The notes beneath the pieces are model-generated. The model searched no databases. It saw only the letters and a program-made list of their open reading frames with translations, and was not told the DNA's origin. Both the position numbers and the translations under genes were made by a program. This document shows, piece by piece, positions 38,060-60,871 of a stretch of 64,000 bases of DNA (the stretch's first letter is position 1; the number at the start of each line of letters is the position of its first letter). Origin of the DNA: a virus; the IMG/VR virus record IMGVR_UViG_3300030419_004788, positions 58,977 through 122,976 of that record. One strand, given 5' to 3'.

Positions 38060-39241
38060 ATGAAGAATAAAAAGAAAATTAAAGAATCTATTTTTTCCCA
38101 TTTCAACAAAAGAAAAGGTAAAAAGGCTGTGGACATACTTCCAAAGGATGTAACTCCAGTACCTCAAATTATAGAACCTATTAGAAAAGAAAAAGAAAAG
38201 AAATCAGAAAAGAAAAAGAAGAATTATATTCCTCAAGAATTGAACGAAACAATATTAAAATTAAGCAAAAAAATAGATTTCATTTCCAAACAACCAAAGG
38301 ATTATCTTAATATAAAAACAATAGAAAAGCATTATAATAAAGATACAAACAATAAAACAATAGAAAAGCATTATAATAAAGATACAAACAATAAAACAAC
38401 AGAAAAGCATTATAATAACACACAAGAAAAACAAAGAATAATCAATATTCCAAAGGAAATTAAAATTCCTACTATTATAAATCCACCATCAACAAAAGAA
38501 AAGGGTTTAAATAATAAAAATGTAGAATTAAAAGAAACCAAAATAGAAAATATACACAAAAATATCAATAAAATACTATTTCAAAATTCTAAAAATGAAA
38601 ATAAACACTTAAAGACCGATATAAGAAACAATAAACATATAAAAATACCAACAATAACTAACAAAACAGAAAATCCCTTCTCGTTTGTTGTAAATAAAAC
38701 TAATATGCCAAATAAGGTAATATCAAAGGTATTAAATTCACACACAGATACCAATAATAAAAATATAACCAAAAAATCTTATTCTATAGACAAATCTACA
38801 GTAAATAAGATATTATCTGGTAAGGTACAAGTCCCAAAAACCATACCTGCATACCAATATGGTGGACCAGTACAATCTTCTTTTGGTGGTAAGTTGGTTC
38901 TTGCAGGGGAAGCAGGGGAAAATGAAGTTATTGTGCCAAACTCGAAAATCAAAACTGTGTCAAGAGAAGCACTACCAAACGCAATAAACAAAACAGACAA
39001 AACAATGTCATCGATTGCTTCAGAAACAATGATGCAAAATGCGGCACTAAAAACAGATAAAATTTCAGAAAGACCAAAAACAGAATCTGCACAACAATCA
39101 CCGTCTGTAGTGGTTCAAAATAATACATCAAGTGGTGGTAATGGGGGTGCTTCTATAGGCGGTGGTGGCGGTTCTACAAAAGCAACCACTGCAATTGGAA
39201 TTCAAACCCAATACCCAATTTGGCGTAGAGGACTTGGTTAA
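38060..39241 (+). CDS. Lys/Asn-rich low-complexity protein at the tape-measure position, 393 aa
   Basis: Follows gp26/gp51; C-terminal YQYGGPV...LAGEAGENEVIVP motif resembles tape-measure-associated tail proteins. Confidence 0.5.
   Translation: MKNKKKIKESIFSHFNKRKGKKAVDILPKDVTPVPQIIEPIRKEKEKKSEKKKKNYIPQELNETILKLSKKIDFISKQPKDYLNIKTIEKHYNKDTNNKTIEKHYNKDTNNKTTEKHYNNTQEKQRIINIPKEIKIPTIINPPSTKEKGLNNKNVELKETKIENIHKNINKILFQNSKNENKHLKTDIRNNKHIKIPTITNKTENPFSFVVNKTNMPNKVISKVLNSHTDTNNKNITKKSYSIDKSTVNKILSGKVQVPKTIPAYQYGGPVQSSFGGKLVLAGEAGENEVIVPNSKIKTVSREALPNAINKTDKTMSSIASETMMQNAALKTDKISERPKTESAQQSPSVVVQNNTSSGGNGGASIGGGGGSTKATTAIGIQTQYPIWRRGLG
38315..38418 (+). repeat. 39-bp tandem repeat, about 2.7 copies (KTIEKHYNKDTNN)
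   Basis: AAAACAATAGAAAAGCATTATAATAAAGATACAAACAAT repeated in frame. Confidence 0.95.
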
Positions 39242-45090: not shown

Positions 45091-45466
45091 TACCCATCAA
45101 TGCAATTGCGCCAGGCGCTGGAACATTAACAGGAGTAATGATTTTAAAATATTCTCCGTAATTATCAGAAGAAATAAATCCTGTTCCGTATTCATATCCG
45201 CCATCTACGGTGAATTCAAATGTTGTTAATGTGGCAGGTTCTAAATCAATATCATCCACCACAAAGAAGTCATTCAACTCAAAGTAGTCAATATTTGTAC
45301 TTGACCAAAAAGCATTTAGAATATCATACTCAAAGAAATTGGCTTCTTCGTAATAGTTTACTTTGATTCTTGCAGACCAATCTTCTGTATGAATCCATTG
45401 CGTGTCTGTATAAGTCGGAAAGTCTGTAAGACTTGCAACTACGGTAAGTGTTAGTGCTTCAATCAT
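45056..45466 (-). CDS. PEP-CTERM-type sorting-domain protein, 136 aa
   Basis: C-terminus VPAPGAIALMGIAGISATRRRR; hydrophobic N-terminus; beta-rich acidic core. Confidence 0.8.
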   Translation of the reverse strand: MIEALTLTVVASLTDFPTYTDTQWIHTEDWSARIKVNYYEEANFFEYDILNAFWSSTNIDYFELNDFFVVDDIDLEPATLTTFEFTVDGGYEYGTGFISSDNYGEYFKIITPVNVPAPGAIALMGIAGISATRRRR

Positions 45467-45472
45467 GAGTAT

Positions 45473-45500
45473 ATTGTACCAAAATTAAAAAGGATGTCAA
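45473..45500 (-). promoter_or_regulatory. Sigma70-type promoter TTGACA-N16-TACAAT (extended -10), probably giving a leaderless mRNA
   Basis: Read directly; ATG lies 6 nt after the -10 hexamer. Confidence 0.75.
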
Positions 45501-55592: not shown

Positions 55593-55958
55593 TTAATTTT
55601 GGGTTGACATCTCCAACATGTCGTCAGACACAGTATGGTCACCCATATCGTCAGAAACGACTTCATACACATGTGTCGAATCTGATAGTTCGTCACCATC
55701 TGTACCATGACCTGGCGATACTGCTTGGAGTGCGTTCCACTGTTCCATAATCTCAGGAATGGTGAATACACCTCTGTCTGCTCTGCGTGATAAGTCATGT
55801 GTAATCCAATTGGGAATCCACTTCTTACCCTTAAATGCCATTGACACTTGACGCAATTCAGCACGACTAAATGTATTCTTGTTTAAATCAATACCTAAAG
55901 CGGGTGCGTGTTCTAAGACTGCACTTACATATTTTTGTTGTTGTTTTGAAAGTTCCAT
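55593..55958 (-). CDS. Stand-alone homolog of the N-terminal domain of the AAA+ ATPase at 57027-58223
   Basis: FSRAEL...PNWITHD..RRADRGVF..PE aligns with VSRQEI...PSWLTQD..RKVGRGLY..PE. Confidence 0.65.
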   Translation of the reverse strand: MELSKQQQKYVSAVLEHAPALGIDLNKNTFSRAELRQVSMAFKGKKWIPNWITHDLSRRADRGVFTIPEIMEQWNALQAVSPGHGTDGDELSDSTHVYEVVSDDMGDHTVSDDMLEMSTQN

Positions 55959-56281: not shown

Positions 56282-56312
56282 ATTGCTCATTGTATCATAA
56301 TTCCTTTGCGTT

Positions 56313-56816: not shown

Positions 56817-57039
56817 AGTTCGTTGTAAATCCTTGTTTTATAAGGGAGTTCCAAAATGTTCTTGCAAGTGGCGTTTCATAGTTTCCACCAATCCGTGCAT
56901 CGTCATATGTCCGCCATCCGTGTCCATCATCGATATGCACGATTACTAGATTAGCACCTTGAGGTTTGAACATATACTGGCAACCTGTTTCGTGATTGAT
57001 TAGATGGAATGTTGTCATTATTGCACTCAAAATGGACAC
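56806..57039 (-). CDS. Hypothetical protein, ARxxW family
   Basis: TPLARTFWNSLIKQGF. Confidence 0.6.
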   Translation of the reverse strand: MSILSAIMTTFHLINHETGCQYMFKPQGANLVIVHIDDGHGWRTYDDARIGGNYETPLARTFWNSLIKQGFTTNYEI

Positions 57040-58223
57040 TCATTTCCTGTTGCGGATTCGACTGCTTCTGCATCTTCTGCTGGCATATCCGCATCGACTT
57101 TTTCGTACAAATCCAAGAGGGACTTTTTGGTGAGGTCATCAAACCGACTCATGCACATCTCAAGAGCAGTTCGTTTGCTACCGAAGATGTTCCATGCTTC
57201 AACGATGTTCACCAAACGGCGAGTTGAAACGACTTCATCAATTCCACCTTCTGCGAAGGTTTTACGGATGATTTCTGCCCATTTGGTCAGATTTTCTGCG
57301 AAGTCCGAATCATCGCAACCGGCCTTGACGAGAATCTTCTTCTCTGTCGCCTTGGTCGCATATGGTTGTTCCATAGTGATTGGGAATCGGTCAAGGAATG
57401 CTTCATTCATGACGCCAGTACCCACGAATCGTCCGTCATCCGAACCTTTACCTTTAGTATTCGCAGTTGCAAACACTTGGAAACCGGCGGCAGGAGTTAC
57501 CCATTGTCCGATTTTCTTCAGGAATACACCCTTACCTTCAAGGACAGGTTGCAAGCACATGATATTTCGTGATGCAAGGTCGACTTCATCAAGAAGAAGA
57601 ACACCACCAGATTTCATTGCGGAAACGACAGGACCATCTTGCCAGACTGTATTACCATTGATAAGACGGAAACCACCTAGAAGGTCATCTTCATCAGTTT
57701 GAGCAGTGATATTGATACGATAACATTCTCGTTTCAATTTCGCACAAACTTGTTCTACCATCAAAGTCTTACCATTACCAGAAAGACCAGTAATGAAGAT
57801 AGGGTAGAATTTGCGAGATTTTACAATCTTGGCGACATTACTAAAGTGACCCCAAGTTACATAACCATCAAATTTTTGTGGGACGAGAGAATCTCTATCG
57901 CCACCGGTCATACCCATCACTAATGATGCGGTATTCATTTCGGGAACGGATTGCTCAACCGCACCCTGTACAGGTGCAACAGGTGCAGGTGCAACAGGTG
58001 CGGGAGCAGAATCCGCAGAATCGACAAATTGTGCGAGTTCGGGGCACTCATACAAACCACGACCTACTTTGCGGGTCGAATCTTGAGTCAACCACGAAGG
58101 TGGACACGCATATGCGCCAGTTGCTTCACACGCATCAAAGATTTCTTGTCTAGACACGGGGGAAGTACATCCGGCAGAAGCCATATGTTTCAAGATTGCG
58201 ATTTGTTTTGGTTTTAGATTCAT
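57027..58223 (-). CDS. cobS: MoxR/CbbQ-type AAA+ ATPase (phage CobS-like) with an N-terminal accessory domain
   Basis: Walker A GLSGNGKT, Walker B LLLDEVD, DDLLGG, ATANTKG, AFLDRF, STRRL; start MNLKPKQ after AAAGGA. Confidence 0.85.
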   Translation of the reverse strand: MNLKPKQIAILKHMASAGCTSPVSRQEIFDACEATGAYACPPSWLTQDSTRKVGRGLYECPELAQFVDSADSAPAPVAPAPVAPVQGAVEQSVPEMNTASLVMGMTGGDRDSLVPQKFDGYVTWGHFSNVAKIVKSRKFYPIFITGLSGNGKTLMVEQVCAKLKRECYRINITAQTDEDDLLGGFRLINGNTVWQDGPVVSAMKSGGVLLLDEVDLASRNIMCLQPVLEGKGVFLKKIGQWVTPAAGFQVFATANTKGKGSDDGRFVGTGVMNEAFLDRFPITMEQPYATKATEKKILVKAGCDDSDFAENLTKWAEIIRKTFAEGGIDEVVSTRRLVNIVEAWNIFGSKRTALEMCMSRFDDLTKKSLLDLYEKVDADMPAEDAEAVESATGNECPF

Positions 58224-58251
58224 AAATTCGATTCCTTTGTTTTTCACTCGT

Positions 58252-58617
58252 ATGCGTATATTGTACCATAATTCTCGGTCTTATGTACCCCTATAGTCCC
58301 TTTTTTATTATCGGACTGACACTATGTTGTCAGTAGGCGGTTAAACCATTGCAAAACAAGCACTTATGAGGCGAGTTTCCCCATATCGGCACCTTCATTA
58401 TTGACCCAAAAACGCACATTGTGGATAACTTGTGGATAAAGTCGTAAGTCCTTTAATACCAAGGGTTTACGATTTTCGTTCGACGCTTAATTAATTTTCG
58501 CCTAAATGCAGTAATATCAATGGTTTAGACACCACATGACAACATAGTGTCAGTCCGATAATAAAAAGTGAACTATAGTGCTACATATTTTGCCCAGTTA
58601 TGGTACAATATACGCAT
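58252..58617. promoter_or_regulatory. Mirror-symmetric divergent control region: two 81-bp inverted arms, three 25-bp palindromes and two DnaA boxes
   Basis: Arms 58252-58332 and 58537-58617 align without gaps (31-bp and 20-bp perfect blocks); TGTGGATAA at 58420-58428 and 58431-58439. Confidence 0.85.
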
Positions 58618-60871
58618 GTTGATGGAAAAAACCCAAGTTAATCGTGCTACCAAGGATATCCTTGCTAAGTGTATGGCAACAGAGGACTTACGAGTCATTC
58701 ATGATGCAAATGCTGAAACTGCGTATTTCGATACTGAAAATCGGGTTTTATGTCTTCCTGTCTGGGAAGATATGTCAAATGCTACCTATGACATGCTTGT
58801 GGGACATGAAGTATCTCACGCATTGCACACTCCAAAAGAGGGTTGGCAAAAGTTTGTCGGTGAAGGTAAAGGTTCACGCATTCGCCACATGTTCTGCAAC
58901 ATTGTTGAAGATGCACGAATCGAACGACTTATTAAAGATAAATTTCCTGGCATTCGCCGTGACTTTGCTACCGCATATGCGGAACTACACGAACGAGATT
59001 TGTTTGAACTAGCAAATCGTACAATCGATATTAATATGCCACTCATTGACCGATTGAACCTTCACTTCAAGTTGGGTTTGTTCGGTTTGGAAACAATTCC
59101 ATTTGCTGATGATGAACAACAATATGTTACTCGCATGGCCGACACAGTAACATTTGAAGATGTTGTTGCACTTGCAAAAGAATTGTACGAAAAACATCAA
59201 GACGAATTAGAAGATGAAGATGAAAATCAACCACAATCTGGTTCGCAATCTGAATCTGGTGATGGTGAATCACAAGATGGTGAATCACAAGATGGTTCAC
59301 AGTCTGGTTCAGAATCTGAAGATGGTGATGAAGAAGAAGGTCAAAATTCTGGTGATGGTGACGAATCTGGTGAAGATTCTGGTCAATCACAAACCGATGA
59401 TACTGATGATGGTGAAGGTGCTGAATCTGGTGAAGGTGAACAACAGCAATCTGGTGATGGTCAATCTGGTTTAGATTATGACGATTACCAATCAGGTGTT
59501 GGACAACCAAGTGCAGGTTCAACTCAAAACGCATTTGAAAATGGTGTCAATGACCTTCGTGCTGAAAATGGTACTCATCATGAGTATCATTCACTACCAA
59601 CAATGAAACTTGAAAACTGTGTAGTCGATTACAACGAAGTAGCCAGCATTTGGGAATCATTTGAGAATAAGTTTTCTGAAAAAGATGAAACTTACTTCCA
59701 ACGATATACTGAAAAAACCGAAAAATCAAAAGCCGATTGTCGTGAATTTCTTCAACGAACTAAATCAACTGTTGCACAAATGGTTCAACACTTCCAAATG
59801 AAGCAAGCAGCCGATGCCGCAAAACGAACAGATATTGCAAAAACTGGCGTTCTTGATACAGTCAACATGATTAACTACCGATGGAGTGAAGACATCTTCC
59901 TAAAGAATGAAGTTCACGCAGATGGTAAAAATCATGGAATCGTCATGTATCTTGACTGGTCTGGTTCAATGTGCAATATCATCAAGGATACAGTTGAACA
60001 ACTTTTAATCCTTACAGAATTCTGTCAAAAGGTTAATATTCCTTTTGATGTCTACGCATTCTCAAGCAAGAATCATCCATCATTGAATGAAACCGATGAT
60101 GAAGGAAAACAATTCAATCACCAATACAACGAACATGGTGTCGATGGCGTATTGCAACCACATGGTTTCTCACTGATTCAATTCTTGTCTTCAGATATGA
60201 AAACAAACGAATACAAGCAAGCAGTTCAAAAATTGTACTACTTGGGTGAAGCAAGTTCATACTACAGTGGTGGATACACTTATCCTTCCGAATTGGGAAT
60301 GGGTTGCACGCCTTTGAACGAAGCAATCATGTGTGCTTTCCATCAAATCCCTGAATTCCAAGCAAAGCATGGTATTCAAATCGTCAATACAGTATTCCTT
60401 ACTGATGGTGACGGACACTCAATGGGTGCGAGTCGTGGGTGGTCTGGAAACAAAGTACTAGTACACGACCCAAAAACTCGTAAAGATTACAATGTCGGTA
60501 ACAAAGGATATAGTGATGAAACTAACACTTATCTTCAGATTCTTCAAGAAAGAACTGGCACAAACCTTATCGGTATTCGTCTTCACGATTCAAAGCATGT
60601 GAAAGGCCTTCAGCATCGATACTTTGGAGGTGAAGATATGACTTCTGCTGCCAAGTCGTGGAAAACAAATAACTTTATCGCAGTCGAAGGACACGGATAC
60701 GACAAACTGTTCATCGTTCGTGGTAATCTTCAAGTTGAAACAGAAGCACTTGATAATCTATCAGAAGACGCATCCTATGCGAAAATCAAGAATGCATTCA
60801 TGAAGGGTGCAAATAACCAAAAGAGCAGTCGAGTCATCGCAACTCAAATGGTAGATATCATCGCCGCATAA
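58616..60871 (+). CDS. CobT-like VWA protein with an N-terminal HExxH metallopeptidase-like domain and an acidic linker
   Basis: AYFDTENRVL.LP.W...DMLVGHEVSHAL; VMYLDWSGSM (MIDAS); GCTP; VFLTDGD; start moved to the ATG 6 nt after TACAAT. Confidence 0.85.
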   Translation: MLMEKTQVNRATKDILAKCMATEDLRVIHDANAETAYFDTENRVLCLPVWEDMSNATYDMLVGHEVSHALHTPKEGWQKFVGEGKGSRIRHMFCNIVEDARIERLIKDKFPGIRRDFATAYAELHERDLFELANRTIDINMPLIDRLNLHFKLGLFGLETIPFADDEQQYVTRMADTVTFEDVVALAKELYEKHQDELEDEDENQPQSGSQSESGDGESQDGESQDGSQSGSESEDGDEEEGQNSGDGDESGEDSGQSQTDDTDDGEGAESGEGEQQQSGDGQSGLDYDDYQSGVGQPSAGSTQNAFENGVNDLRAENGTHHEYHSLPTMKLENCVVDYNEVASIWESFENKFSEKDETYFQRYTEKTEKSKADCREFLQRTKSTVAQMVQHFQMKQAADAAKRTDIAKTGVLDTVNMINYRWSEDIFLKNEVHADGKNHGIVMYLDWSGSMCNIIKDTVEQLLILTEFCQKVNIPFDVYAFSSKNHPSLNETDDEGKQFNHQYNEHGVDGVLQPHGFSLIQFLSSDMKTNEYKQAVQKLYYLGEASSYYSGGYTYPSELGMGCTPLNEAIMCAFHQIPEFQAKHGIQIVNTVFLTDGDGHSMGASRGWSGNKVLVHDPKTRKDYNVGNKGYSDETNTYLQILQERTGTNLIGIRLHDSKHVKGLQHRYFGGEDMTSAAKSWKTNNFIAVEGHGYDKLFIVRGNLQVETEALDNLSEDASYAKIKNAFMKGANNQKSSRVIATQMVDIIAA

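Follow-up and report, generated by a model that had tools for sequence, protein, structure and literature searches.

A mirrored region between divergent cobS-like and cobT-like genes of an uncultured marine T4-type phage, read as shared upstream control of two promoters

The subject of this work is a mirrored intergenic region in a stretch of 64,000 nucleotides (nt), hereafter the window, which forms the final 64 kb of a 122,976-base-pair (bp) IMG/VR viral contig (record IMGVR_UViG_3300030419_004788, positions 58,977 to 122,976) with an estimated completeness of 68%. The contig contains a match to the Gp23 capsid family (E 7e-142), and its source is an uncultured marine T4-type phage. The mirrored region occupies a 392-bp gap between two divergent (back-to-back) genes, one cobS-like and one cobT-like. 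An earlier note on this DNA, made from the sequence alone, had proposed it as a candidate replication origin or master switch. The feature proves to be real, is conserved and stands under selection; rather than as a master switch or an established replication origin, we read it as a two-way control region, that is, as shared upstream control of two divergent activator-type sigma-70 promoters to which host factors are recruited, and we give this reading a probability of roughly 55%. In the list below, box18 is an 18-bp near-palindrome, CTGAC-N8-GTCAG; PAL is a family of 25-bp palindromes with the consensus TAAGTCC-N11-GGACTTA; and module A is one of several cassettes that lie between box18 and promoter.

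57027 to 58223, minus strand: cobS-like gene for a MoxR-type AAA+ protein of 398 amino acids (Pfam AAA_5, 1.8e-20, and CbbQ_C; PHROG 249, "porphyrin biosynthesis"/CobS, 1.8e-116)
58224 to 58253, minus strand: probable cobS 5' leader carrying AAGGAA as ribosome-binding site, its start placed 7 nt past the -10
58260 to 58287, minus strand: left promoter, with extended -10 TGGTACAAT (58260-58268), 16-nt spacer and weak -35-like TACATA (58282-58287)
58308 to 58316, minus strand: start of left module A, GTCCGATAA, A-rich and adjoining box18 (from the sequence and relatives' arms)
58316 to 58333, no strand: left box18, CTGACACTATGTTGTCAG (from the sequence and family conservation)
58342 to 58366, no strand: PAL1, a 25-bp TAA...TTA palindrome 8 nt inside the left box18
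58420 to 58439, plus strand: double DnaA box TGTGGATAA-CT-TGTGGATAA, perfect boxes at 58420-58428 and 58431-58439 with a 2-bp spacer
58445 to 58469, no strand: PAL2, the best-conserved palindrome, 5 nt past the DnaA boxes
58503 to 58527, no strand: PAL3, 8 nt inside the right box18
58536 to 58553, no strand: right box18, ATGACAACATAGTGTCAG (from the sequence and family conservation)
58553 to 58561, plus strand: start of right module A, GTCCGATAA (from the sequence and relatives' arms)
58582 to 58609, plus strand: right promoter, with TACATA, 16-nt spacer and extended -10 TGGTACAAT (58601-58609)
58616 to 60871, plus strand: cobT-like VWA "peptidase" gene, 751 amino acids (PHROG 459, "peptidase", 8.6e-190)

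The peptidase protein carries the motif HEVSH, an acidic linker and a VWA-type DWSGS...TDGDG, all read from the sequence. Small open reading frames within the core, between the boxes, encode 20-32 amino acids. The mirrored region matched no Rfam family at E <= 1, and a tRNA-Cys is the sole Rfam-type RNA in the whole window.

The two arms of the mirror (58252-58351 and 58518-58617) align in inverted orientation and without gaps at 80 identical positions out of 100, a result on which the sequence itself, a repeat finder and our own alignment agree. Their inverted local alignment scored 106, as against a maximum of 30 and a mean of 20 for shuffled sequences (n = 30). The 81-bp inverted arms described earlier are borne out as the outer part of these 100-nt arms, and the perfect blocks of 31 and 20 bp were both recovered by alignment and repeat finder. 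The 31-nt block includes TGACA-N6-TGTCA; the 20-nt block, TTATGGTACAATATACGCAT, contains the extended -10 and the first transcribed bases. The shorter blocks ATGTA and CTATAGT are common to both arms, as is TAAACCATTG, an inner block of 10 nt. The blocks shared by the arms are functional elements of one cassette type.

Relatives were gathered by protein-guided searches, which yielded 8 IMG/VR and 56 metagenome loci with a divergent cobS/cobT pair. Among these, 53 intergenic sequences are distinct, and the counts below are over these relatives, whose CobS proteins are 47-87% identical to that of the window. In an alignment of the closest relatives the conserved footprint comprises both extended -10 elements, the leaderless peptidase start, the inverted box18 pair and the PALs, and the layout recurs in the 53 distinct relatives. 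The right arm of the window is nearer to the right arms of two relatives (L229 and L230) than to the left arm of the window itself, which indicates that the mirror is not a fresh duplication. This agrees with the proposal of the earlier note that selection acts on protein-binding geometry: the blocks are kept in the 53 relatives, and the intervening spacers have diverged in sequence within narrow limits of length. An exact IMG/VR search with the 31-nt block for close strains returned none.

Evidence for promoter control comes from the geometry of box18, which in the relatives occurs as an inverted, outward-pointing pair. The distance from box18 to the -10 hexamer fell into three classes in 78 arms, with 50-52 nt in 16 arms, 61-63 nt in 55 and 71-72 nt in 7, and no others. 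The step between classes is 10-11 bp, or one helical turn, and the sequence in between belongs to many highly diverged, barely alignable types. If transcription starts 7 nt past the -10, box18 is centred at about -71.5 in the window and at -82.5 or -92.5 in relatives. These are positions permitted for Class I activators such as CRP. An upstream dimer site at one-turn intervals only, which is the hallmark of Class I control, was found across the 78 arms on these assumed starts, and the promoter by itself is poor, with its weak -35. The helical phasing, taken with the weak -35, points to box18 as an upstream site of regulation that acts on RNA polymerase. The earlier note had spoken of palindromic operators; box18 does not overlap the promoter but is helically phased upstream of it, at about -71.5, -82.5 or -92.5.

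The resemblance to CRP-type Class I promoters (sites at -61.5, -71.5, -82.5 and -92.5) extends to a dimer-type palindrome (5-N6-5, 18 bp) in one-turn steps upstream of the weak -35, and to the A-rich, UP-like stretch between site and promoter. The half-site differs, however, being TGACA rather than TGTGA; one pair of sites serves two divergent promoters here; and the starts of the phage promoters are placed by prediction. Both box18 and PAL were confined to the cobS/cobT intergenic region in the window contig and in three related contigs of 118-157 kb, and the scan for further 25-bp sites that the earlier note had suggested likewise found PAL unique to this region in the contigs examined. This suggests that the sites serve the cobS/cobT locus only. 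The central 8 nt of box18 vary between genomes (ATGGGGTC, ATAGGGTC, ATGAGGTC, ACTAGGCT, ACTATGTT), and the two copies within a genome match.

The interval between box18 and promoter is filled by interchangeable cassettes, namely module A, module B and several more types. Module A accompanies the 50-52 nt distance class in every case, and both arms of the window carry it. Module B is CTAACAAAACCCTAAAA, with a direct repeat GTTAGG-N5-GTTAG. Single-linkage clustering merged all cassettes, as they are mosaic, and the independence of cassette types was judged by eye. Direct repeats GTTAGG-N5-GTTAGG (L248:255-320, L230:230-300 and the core of L129), with an 11-bp period resembling response-regulator sites, also flank the DnaA boxes in some relatives. 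They take the place of module A beside box18 in other relatives, and occur in both 5' leaders in L188.

The earlier note had described twin outward promoters of the form TACATA-N16-TACAAT. These are supported by our analysis, to which the extended -10 can be added: it is kept in all relatives, with the family form TGGTAYAAT and a weak -35. On the left, a 30-nt leader containing AAGGAA comes between the 20-nt block and the cobS ATG. On the right, the peptidase ATG is made up by the terminal bases of the arm and stands 7 nt past the -10, both here and in the relatives examined, so that the peptidase mRNA would be leaderless. The 20-nt core block has three copies in 123 kb, the third lying elsewhere in the window:

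45465 to 45484, minus strand: third core-promoter block, TTTTGGTACAATATACTCAT, with a perfect TTGACA -35, predicted to drive a leaderless gene for 136 amino acids

Two other leaderless promoters, at 56297(-) and 49676(-), have TTGAAA as -35. An ATG thus stands 7-8 nt past the -10 at four early promoters, 56297(-), 49676(-), 45481(-) and 58601(+). The phage therefore uses early promoters of sigma-70 type, TTGAMA-N16/17-TGRTACAAT-N7/8-ATG, and several of its mRNAs appear to be leaderless, an uncommon trait among T4-type phages. The mirrored promoters differ from the other leaderless early promoters in having TACATA at the -35 position rather than TTGACA or TTGAAA.

Between the boxes, the three 25-bp palindromes reported earlier were confirmed at their positions. 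Relatives have one to three PALs, the outer ones beginning 6-8 nt inside box18, and the smallest cores, of 54-60 bp, have one PAL and no DnaA box. In candidate host genomes, matches to PAL were at chance level or within coding regions. The tandem perfect DnaA boxes, also noted earlier, form a textbook double DnaA box, which is present in 34 of the 53 relatives and absent from the other 19. In nine of the 17 relatives in which the distance to the next PAL was measured, the gap corresponding to that between DnaA boxes and PAL2 is exactly 5 bp. The centre of the DnaA pair (58429.5) lies 5 bp from the symmetry axis of the mirror (58434.5). The whole contig has five perfect DnaA boxes, the other three being single and scattered.

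Chromatin immunoprecipitation with sequencing in E. coli showed that two DnaA boxes spaced 2-3 bp apart are the unit bound by DnaA in vivo, and that such double boxes lie mostly at regulatory sites (nrdA, purH, polA, rpoH, mioC, dnaA), and also at oriC and the DnaA-reactivating sequences DARS (PMC11317965). The phage pair has the form of such a regulatory site, with two boxes in one orientation 2 bp apart. Host DnaA likely binds it, although binding alone does not mark an origin. As at the DnaA-regulated promoters of nrdA, purH, polA, mioC and dnaA, two perfect, co-oriented boxes lie 2 bp apart upstream of genes; in contrast to these promoters, the pair belongs to a lytic T4-type phage, is some 180 bp away from the starts, abuts a PAL and is optional within the family. 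The exact tandem TGTGGATAACYTGTGGATAA was also found in at least 119 viral contigs (IMG/VR loci L010-L128), as against about 1-2 expected by chance on our own rough estimate. Judged from sequence, double DnaA boxes are a common phage element. In the cores of L129, L132 and L141, the DnaA-box position is accompanied by a T4-late-promoter-like element (TATAAATA/TATAAAGA), AGGAAC and a GC-rich hairpin; the late-promoter-like element, which does not occur in the window, could give rise to an internal late transcript.

A candidate for the PAL binder is encoded next door. The N-terminal ~70 residues of the CobS-like protein are not found in cyanophage CobS, matches to which begin at residues 42-112 of the window protein. 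A structural model of residues 1-70 (pLDDT, the predicted local distance difference test score, ~90) consists of helix, helix, short helix and beta-hairpin, and its top structural matches are winged-helix domains (Rv2827c, MukF, MCM8 WH, ORC2, Fur and BlaI; Z 3.4-4.9). The model is suggestive of a winged-helix-like domain. Foldseek gave only EF-hand noise for this domain, and Pfam searches with the peptidase, the CobS N-terminal domain and its free paralogue gave no matches, even at E 5. This paralogue lies in the window:

55593 to 55958, minus strand: 121-amino-acid protein, a free-standing paralogue of the winged-helix-like domain at the N terminus of CobS (28% identity over 60 amino acids by blastp, E 7.5e-8 in a small database)

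Either the N-terminal domain or the free paralogue would be a reasonable candidate for binding PAL. Separately, the winged-helix variant of one clade, GMSFPAWIMRDD, departs from the others in its putative recognition helix; the clade has ATGGGGTC or ACTAGGCT as box18 centre and lacks DnaA boxes. This co-variation was rejected as an identification of the box18 binder, since it is a single event in one clade and genomes lacking box18 carry the common winged-helix type.

Sites like box18 also occur in bacteria. The exact 19-mer CTGACRACATAGTGTCAGT occurs 13 times in a collection of genomes from 185,579 species, in every case within or beside an intergenic region and often in a longer palindrome. 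Three copies lie upstream of recA, in Fodinibius, a Balneolaceae metagenome-assembled genome (MAG) and an Isosphaeraceae MAG. Others adjoin DinB-family genes in two Paenibacillus species and glyoxalase/bleomycin-resistance genes in two gammaproteobacteria, and the remaining neighbours are RhuM and a few unknowns. Planctomycetota supply four of the 13 matches. At least four sites with the box18 centre occur in a Phycisphaerales MAG, where an orfX-lexA operon is preceded by the box, 26 nt, TTGACA, 17 nt and TAACAT, which gives a distance of 49 nt from box to -10, only 1-3 nt off the phage class of 50-52 nt. At Isosphaeraceae radA, the box-like CTGACGACCCCATGTCAT lies 26 nt ahead of the ATG. On a 5-kb Planctomycetota MAG contig (L297:3453-3560), box18 is followed by 61 nt, TATAAT, 8 nt and ATG, and adjoins a RhuM-family gene; this resembles the phage promoter grammar in an unrelated gene context, and hints at a planctomycete host.

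A 20-bp motif, ACTGACA-N6-TGTCAGT, was seen at the bacterial loci L289, L301, L298, L320, L331, L293 and L296. It lies upstream of recA (3 genomes), the orfX-lexA operon, radA and DinB-family genes in Planctomycetota, Balneolaceae and Paenibacillus, and may mark an undescribed DNA-repair regulon. The box18 sequence differs from the LexA motif of Balneolaeota, TTACACATATTTTWTACATA (PMC7739468), yet sits at recA of Balneolaceae. A limited full-text literature search found no published LexA motif for Planctomycetota.

The nearest described operators are those of DriD and DdaA, WYL-domain activators that sense single-stranded DNA and control recA and other repair genes (PMC10853764, PMC13010146). 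Both share with box18 the form xGAC-spacer-GTCx with an AT-rich centre (DriD, ATACGAC-N7-GTCGTAT; DdaA of Acinetobacter, CGACAATATGTGTCG, as compared with TGACAACATAGTGTCA in the phage), and the bacterial copies of box18 lie at repair genes (recA three times, the lexA operon, radA and DinB-family genes twice). However, with TGAC-N8-GTCA instead of CGAC-N7-GTCG, half-site and spacer are each one base off, and box18 stands one to three turns further upstream than DriD sites, which overlap the -35. The small open reading frames beside the bacterial copies have no similarity to one another or to phage proteins, and no adjacent regulator emerged. A host regulator of DNA-damage type would most likely be the binder of box18.

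The locus joins a Class-I-like operator pair to a double DnaA box like that of nrdA or purH and to locus-specific palindromes. Each arm runs, toward its gene, from box18 through an A-rich stretch and a weak -35 to the extended -10. The left promoter would give a cobS-like mRNA with a 30-nt leader and the right promoter a leaderless cobT-like mRNA. A dimeric host regulator of DNA-damage type on box18 would help RNA polymerase at both promoters together, the one to three PALs between the boxes would bind a second, locus-specific factor (candidates being the winged-helix-like domain of CobS and the free paralogue), and in the two thirds of the family that have the double DnaA box, host DnaA could join the complex. 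Both genes would then be co-expressed and tied to the replication and DNA-damage state of the infected cell. The sequences themselves show the motifs, how they are conserved and phased, their restriction to this locus and the similar sites in bacteria. We infer the identities of the binders, and also that the regulation is positive rather than negative; the box18 factor might instead act by repression or looping.

Several observations weigh against this reading. At about 180 bp from either predicted start, the double DnaA box is too distant to touch polymerase directly, and all starts are placed from -10 elements. A simple sigma-70 scanner misses the mirrored promoters because of their weak TACATA -35. 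The length classes of the arms could in part reflect descent from a few cassette types. The 13 bacterial matches are only modestly more than the ~9 that we estimate by chance, so that the argument from them rests on their location. No WYL gene was found in the phage contigs, and no box was found beside three WYL genes of two Planctomycetota candidate-host genomes, within the stretches examined. Finally, an origin could equally take the form of locus-unique palindromes beside DnaA boxes and an AAA+ gene.

The usual view of lytic T4-type phages is that strong constitutive promoters of host type drive their early genes. Here, a widespread marine phage family keeps an elaborate, phased control region before two genes that are usually listed as auxiliary metabolic. 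In the phage literature, cobS and cobT are simply auxiliary metabolic genes, classed with nucleotide metabolism (PMC7029224), and we found no account in the literature of such a hub upstream of phage cobS/cobT. If host DnaA and a DNA-damage regulator do bind, the phage would time cobS/cobT expression by the replication and damage state of its host. Two by-products seem worth following. First, box18 marks a candidate regulon and offers a lead to bacterial DNA-repair control in several phyla, distinct from the LexA motif where that is published (Balneolaeota). Second, a winged-helix domain on a MoxR-type, CobS-like ATPase would make the function of this ATPase approachable through palindrome binding. 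The sites also hint that Planctomycetota may be hosts of these uncultured deep-ocean phages. A far-reaching version of these ideas, to which we give little credence, is that this marine T4-type family wires its MoxR/VWA gene pair to DnaA and to an undescribed DNA-damage regulator (CTGAC-N8-GTCAG; at recA, lexA and radA in Planctomycetota and other phyla), with an AAA+ winged-helix protein on the PALs, the hub being a novel type of autoregulated enhancer-like complex or a novel type of T4-type origin with a DNA-bound MoxR-clade ATPase as motor.

The alternative that survives best, doubtful as we consider it, is that the core of PALs and double DnaA box is a phage replication origin, possibly as well as a control region. 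The palindromes would be bound by an initiator of the phage, for which the CobS-like AAA+ protein with its winged helix is a candidate, while host DnaA helped to open the DNA. The perfect double DnaA box 5 bp from the best-conserved palindrome, the confinement of the palindromes to this locus and the AAA+ gene next door with its winged-helix-like domain would all fit, as would a ~100-bp AT-rich repeated stretch in the core of some relatives (L129 type) and the recurrence of tandem DnaA boxes of this spacing in the viral contigs mentioned above. The same features recall P1 oriR, pSC101 and the lambda origin with its palindromic O sites, where locus-unique repeated palindromes and DnaA boxes also accompany a gene for a possible binder.

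The phage hub differs from those origins, however, in lacking an unwinding element and a recognised initiator, in that its DnaA boxes are dispensable, and in a geometry directed at promoters. The host-DnaA-dependent origin proposed in the earlier note leans on the DnaA boxes, which 19 of the 53 relatives do without, and minimal cores measure just 54-60 bp. The scan for additional boxes that it had suggested found none at one mismatch or less in the 392-bp region beyond the two, and hence no weaker array. The core of the window has no AT-rich unwinding element next to the boxes, with a G+C content of 32-50% (40-nt windows, 58340-58530) as against ~38% for the genome, and cumulative GC skew, another of its suggested checks, follows gene direction only. 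A cluster of DnaA boxes, an adjacent unwinding element and boxes throughout the family, which mark oriC and plasmid-type origins, were all missing here. The measurable constraint on geometry links the sites to the promoters, and the MoxR/CobS clade is not an initiator clade. In T4-type phages, replication begins at R-loops and at intermediates of recombination and uses a helicase loader of the phage's own, which likewise argues against an origin of this kind.

The unrelated Pseudoalteromonas phage H101 (L001:4616-5397) has 780 bp of non-coding DNA in which at least four DnaA boxes, the same tandem pair among them, occur together with many GTTAAC-type repeats. This is likely the origin of that cultured phage, unannotated in its record, and it lends the origin reading some support by analogy. 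A DnaA-box-like cluster at positions 38213-38319 of the contig, outside the window, has four one-mismatch boxes on one strand within 107 bp; it lies inside an open reading frame of 348 amino acids and was taken as chance.

A second alternative is that the mirror is mainly a by-product of the recombination of early-promoter cassettes, with gene conversion and swaps, and that the inner motifs have no joint regulatory logic. The model for this is the promoter-early stem-loop (PeSL) cassette of T4-type phages (Arbiol et al., 2010, PMC2839356). Arm pairs within a genome are more similar than orthologous arms across genomes, which we attribute to gene conversion between arms; the matching box18 centres within genomes fit such conversion. 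The arms are also mosaic, with modules A, B and others found on either side. As in PeSLs, a sigma-70-like early promoter has AT-rich DNA upstream of it, the cassettes are kept uniform inside a genome and exchanged among genomes, and many relatives have a C/G-tract hairpin, CCCCTAT..GGGG, at about -45 to -25 in the -35 region (PMC2839356), which in the window is reduced to CTATAG. PeSLs, however, occur in dozens of copies spread through plastic regions, whereas the core block has three copies in 123 kb, and they lack a phased operator, whereas the arms here carry the phased, far-upstream box18 and enclose locus-specific palindromes. Conversion alone does not explain the quantisation of arm length into three classes, the persistence of box18 and PAL across 47-87% CobS identity, or the look-alike sites at bacterial DNA-repair genes. 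We therefore regard this explanation of the whole as improbable, and keep shared promoter control as the preferred reading.

The earlier note had also raised a segment flippable by a recombinase, in which box18 would be the crossover site, its conserved half-sites flanking an asymmetric centre that is alike in the two copies. The repeats are indeed inverted, the box18 centre differs across genomes but matches between the two copies, and L131 and L225 carry the DnaA module in reverse. Yet the inversion in L225 is local, comprising the DnaA box and one GTTAGG repeat, and is bounded by GTTAGG repeats instead of the arms. Of the 34 distinct metagenome relatives that have a double box, 33 carry the DnaA boxes in the orientation seen in the window, L131 (from IMG/VR) being the other exception, so both orientations were not found among close relatives. 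No tyrosine or serine recombinase (PF00589, PF00239) was found in the 123-kb contig (68% of the genome), and box18 also stands singly at bacterial promoters. These results contradict the flippable segment, which we hold to be very improbable. No more credible is a physical role of the DnaA boxes, either tethering phage DNA to membrane-bound DnaA or titrating DnaA from the host origin, as proposed for the injection-stop region of T5, which with its relatives keeps paired DnaA boxes in inverted repeats in non-coding, non-origin DNA (bioRxiv 10.1101/866236): T5, another type of phage, has eight boxes in its terminal repeat, 3 bp apart and inside the inverted repeats, whereas here just two boxes lie outside the arms and are missing from a third of the relatives, and T4-type phages have no two-step injection.

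One further site resembling PAL lies within the peptidase gene:

58666 to 58690, no strand: PAL-like site inside the peptidase coding region, matching 12 of 14 half-site bases

Relatives have one of two alleles at this site: AKCMA.EDLRV, with both half-sites, in 12 of 55 relatives, or ARCMATEDIRV, with neither. The two half-sites always co-occur.

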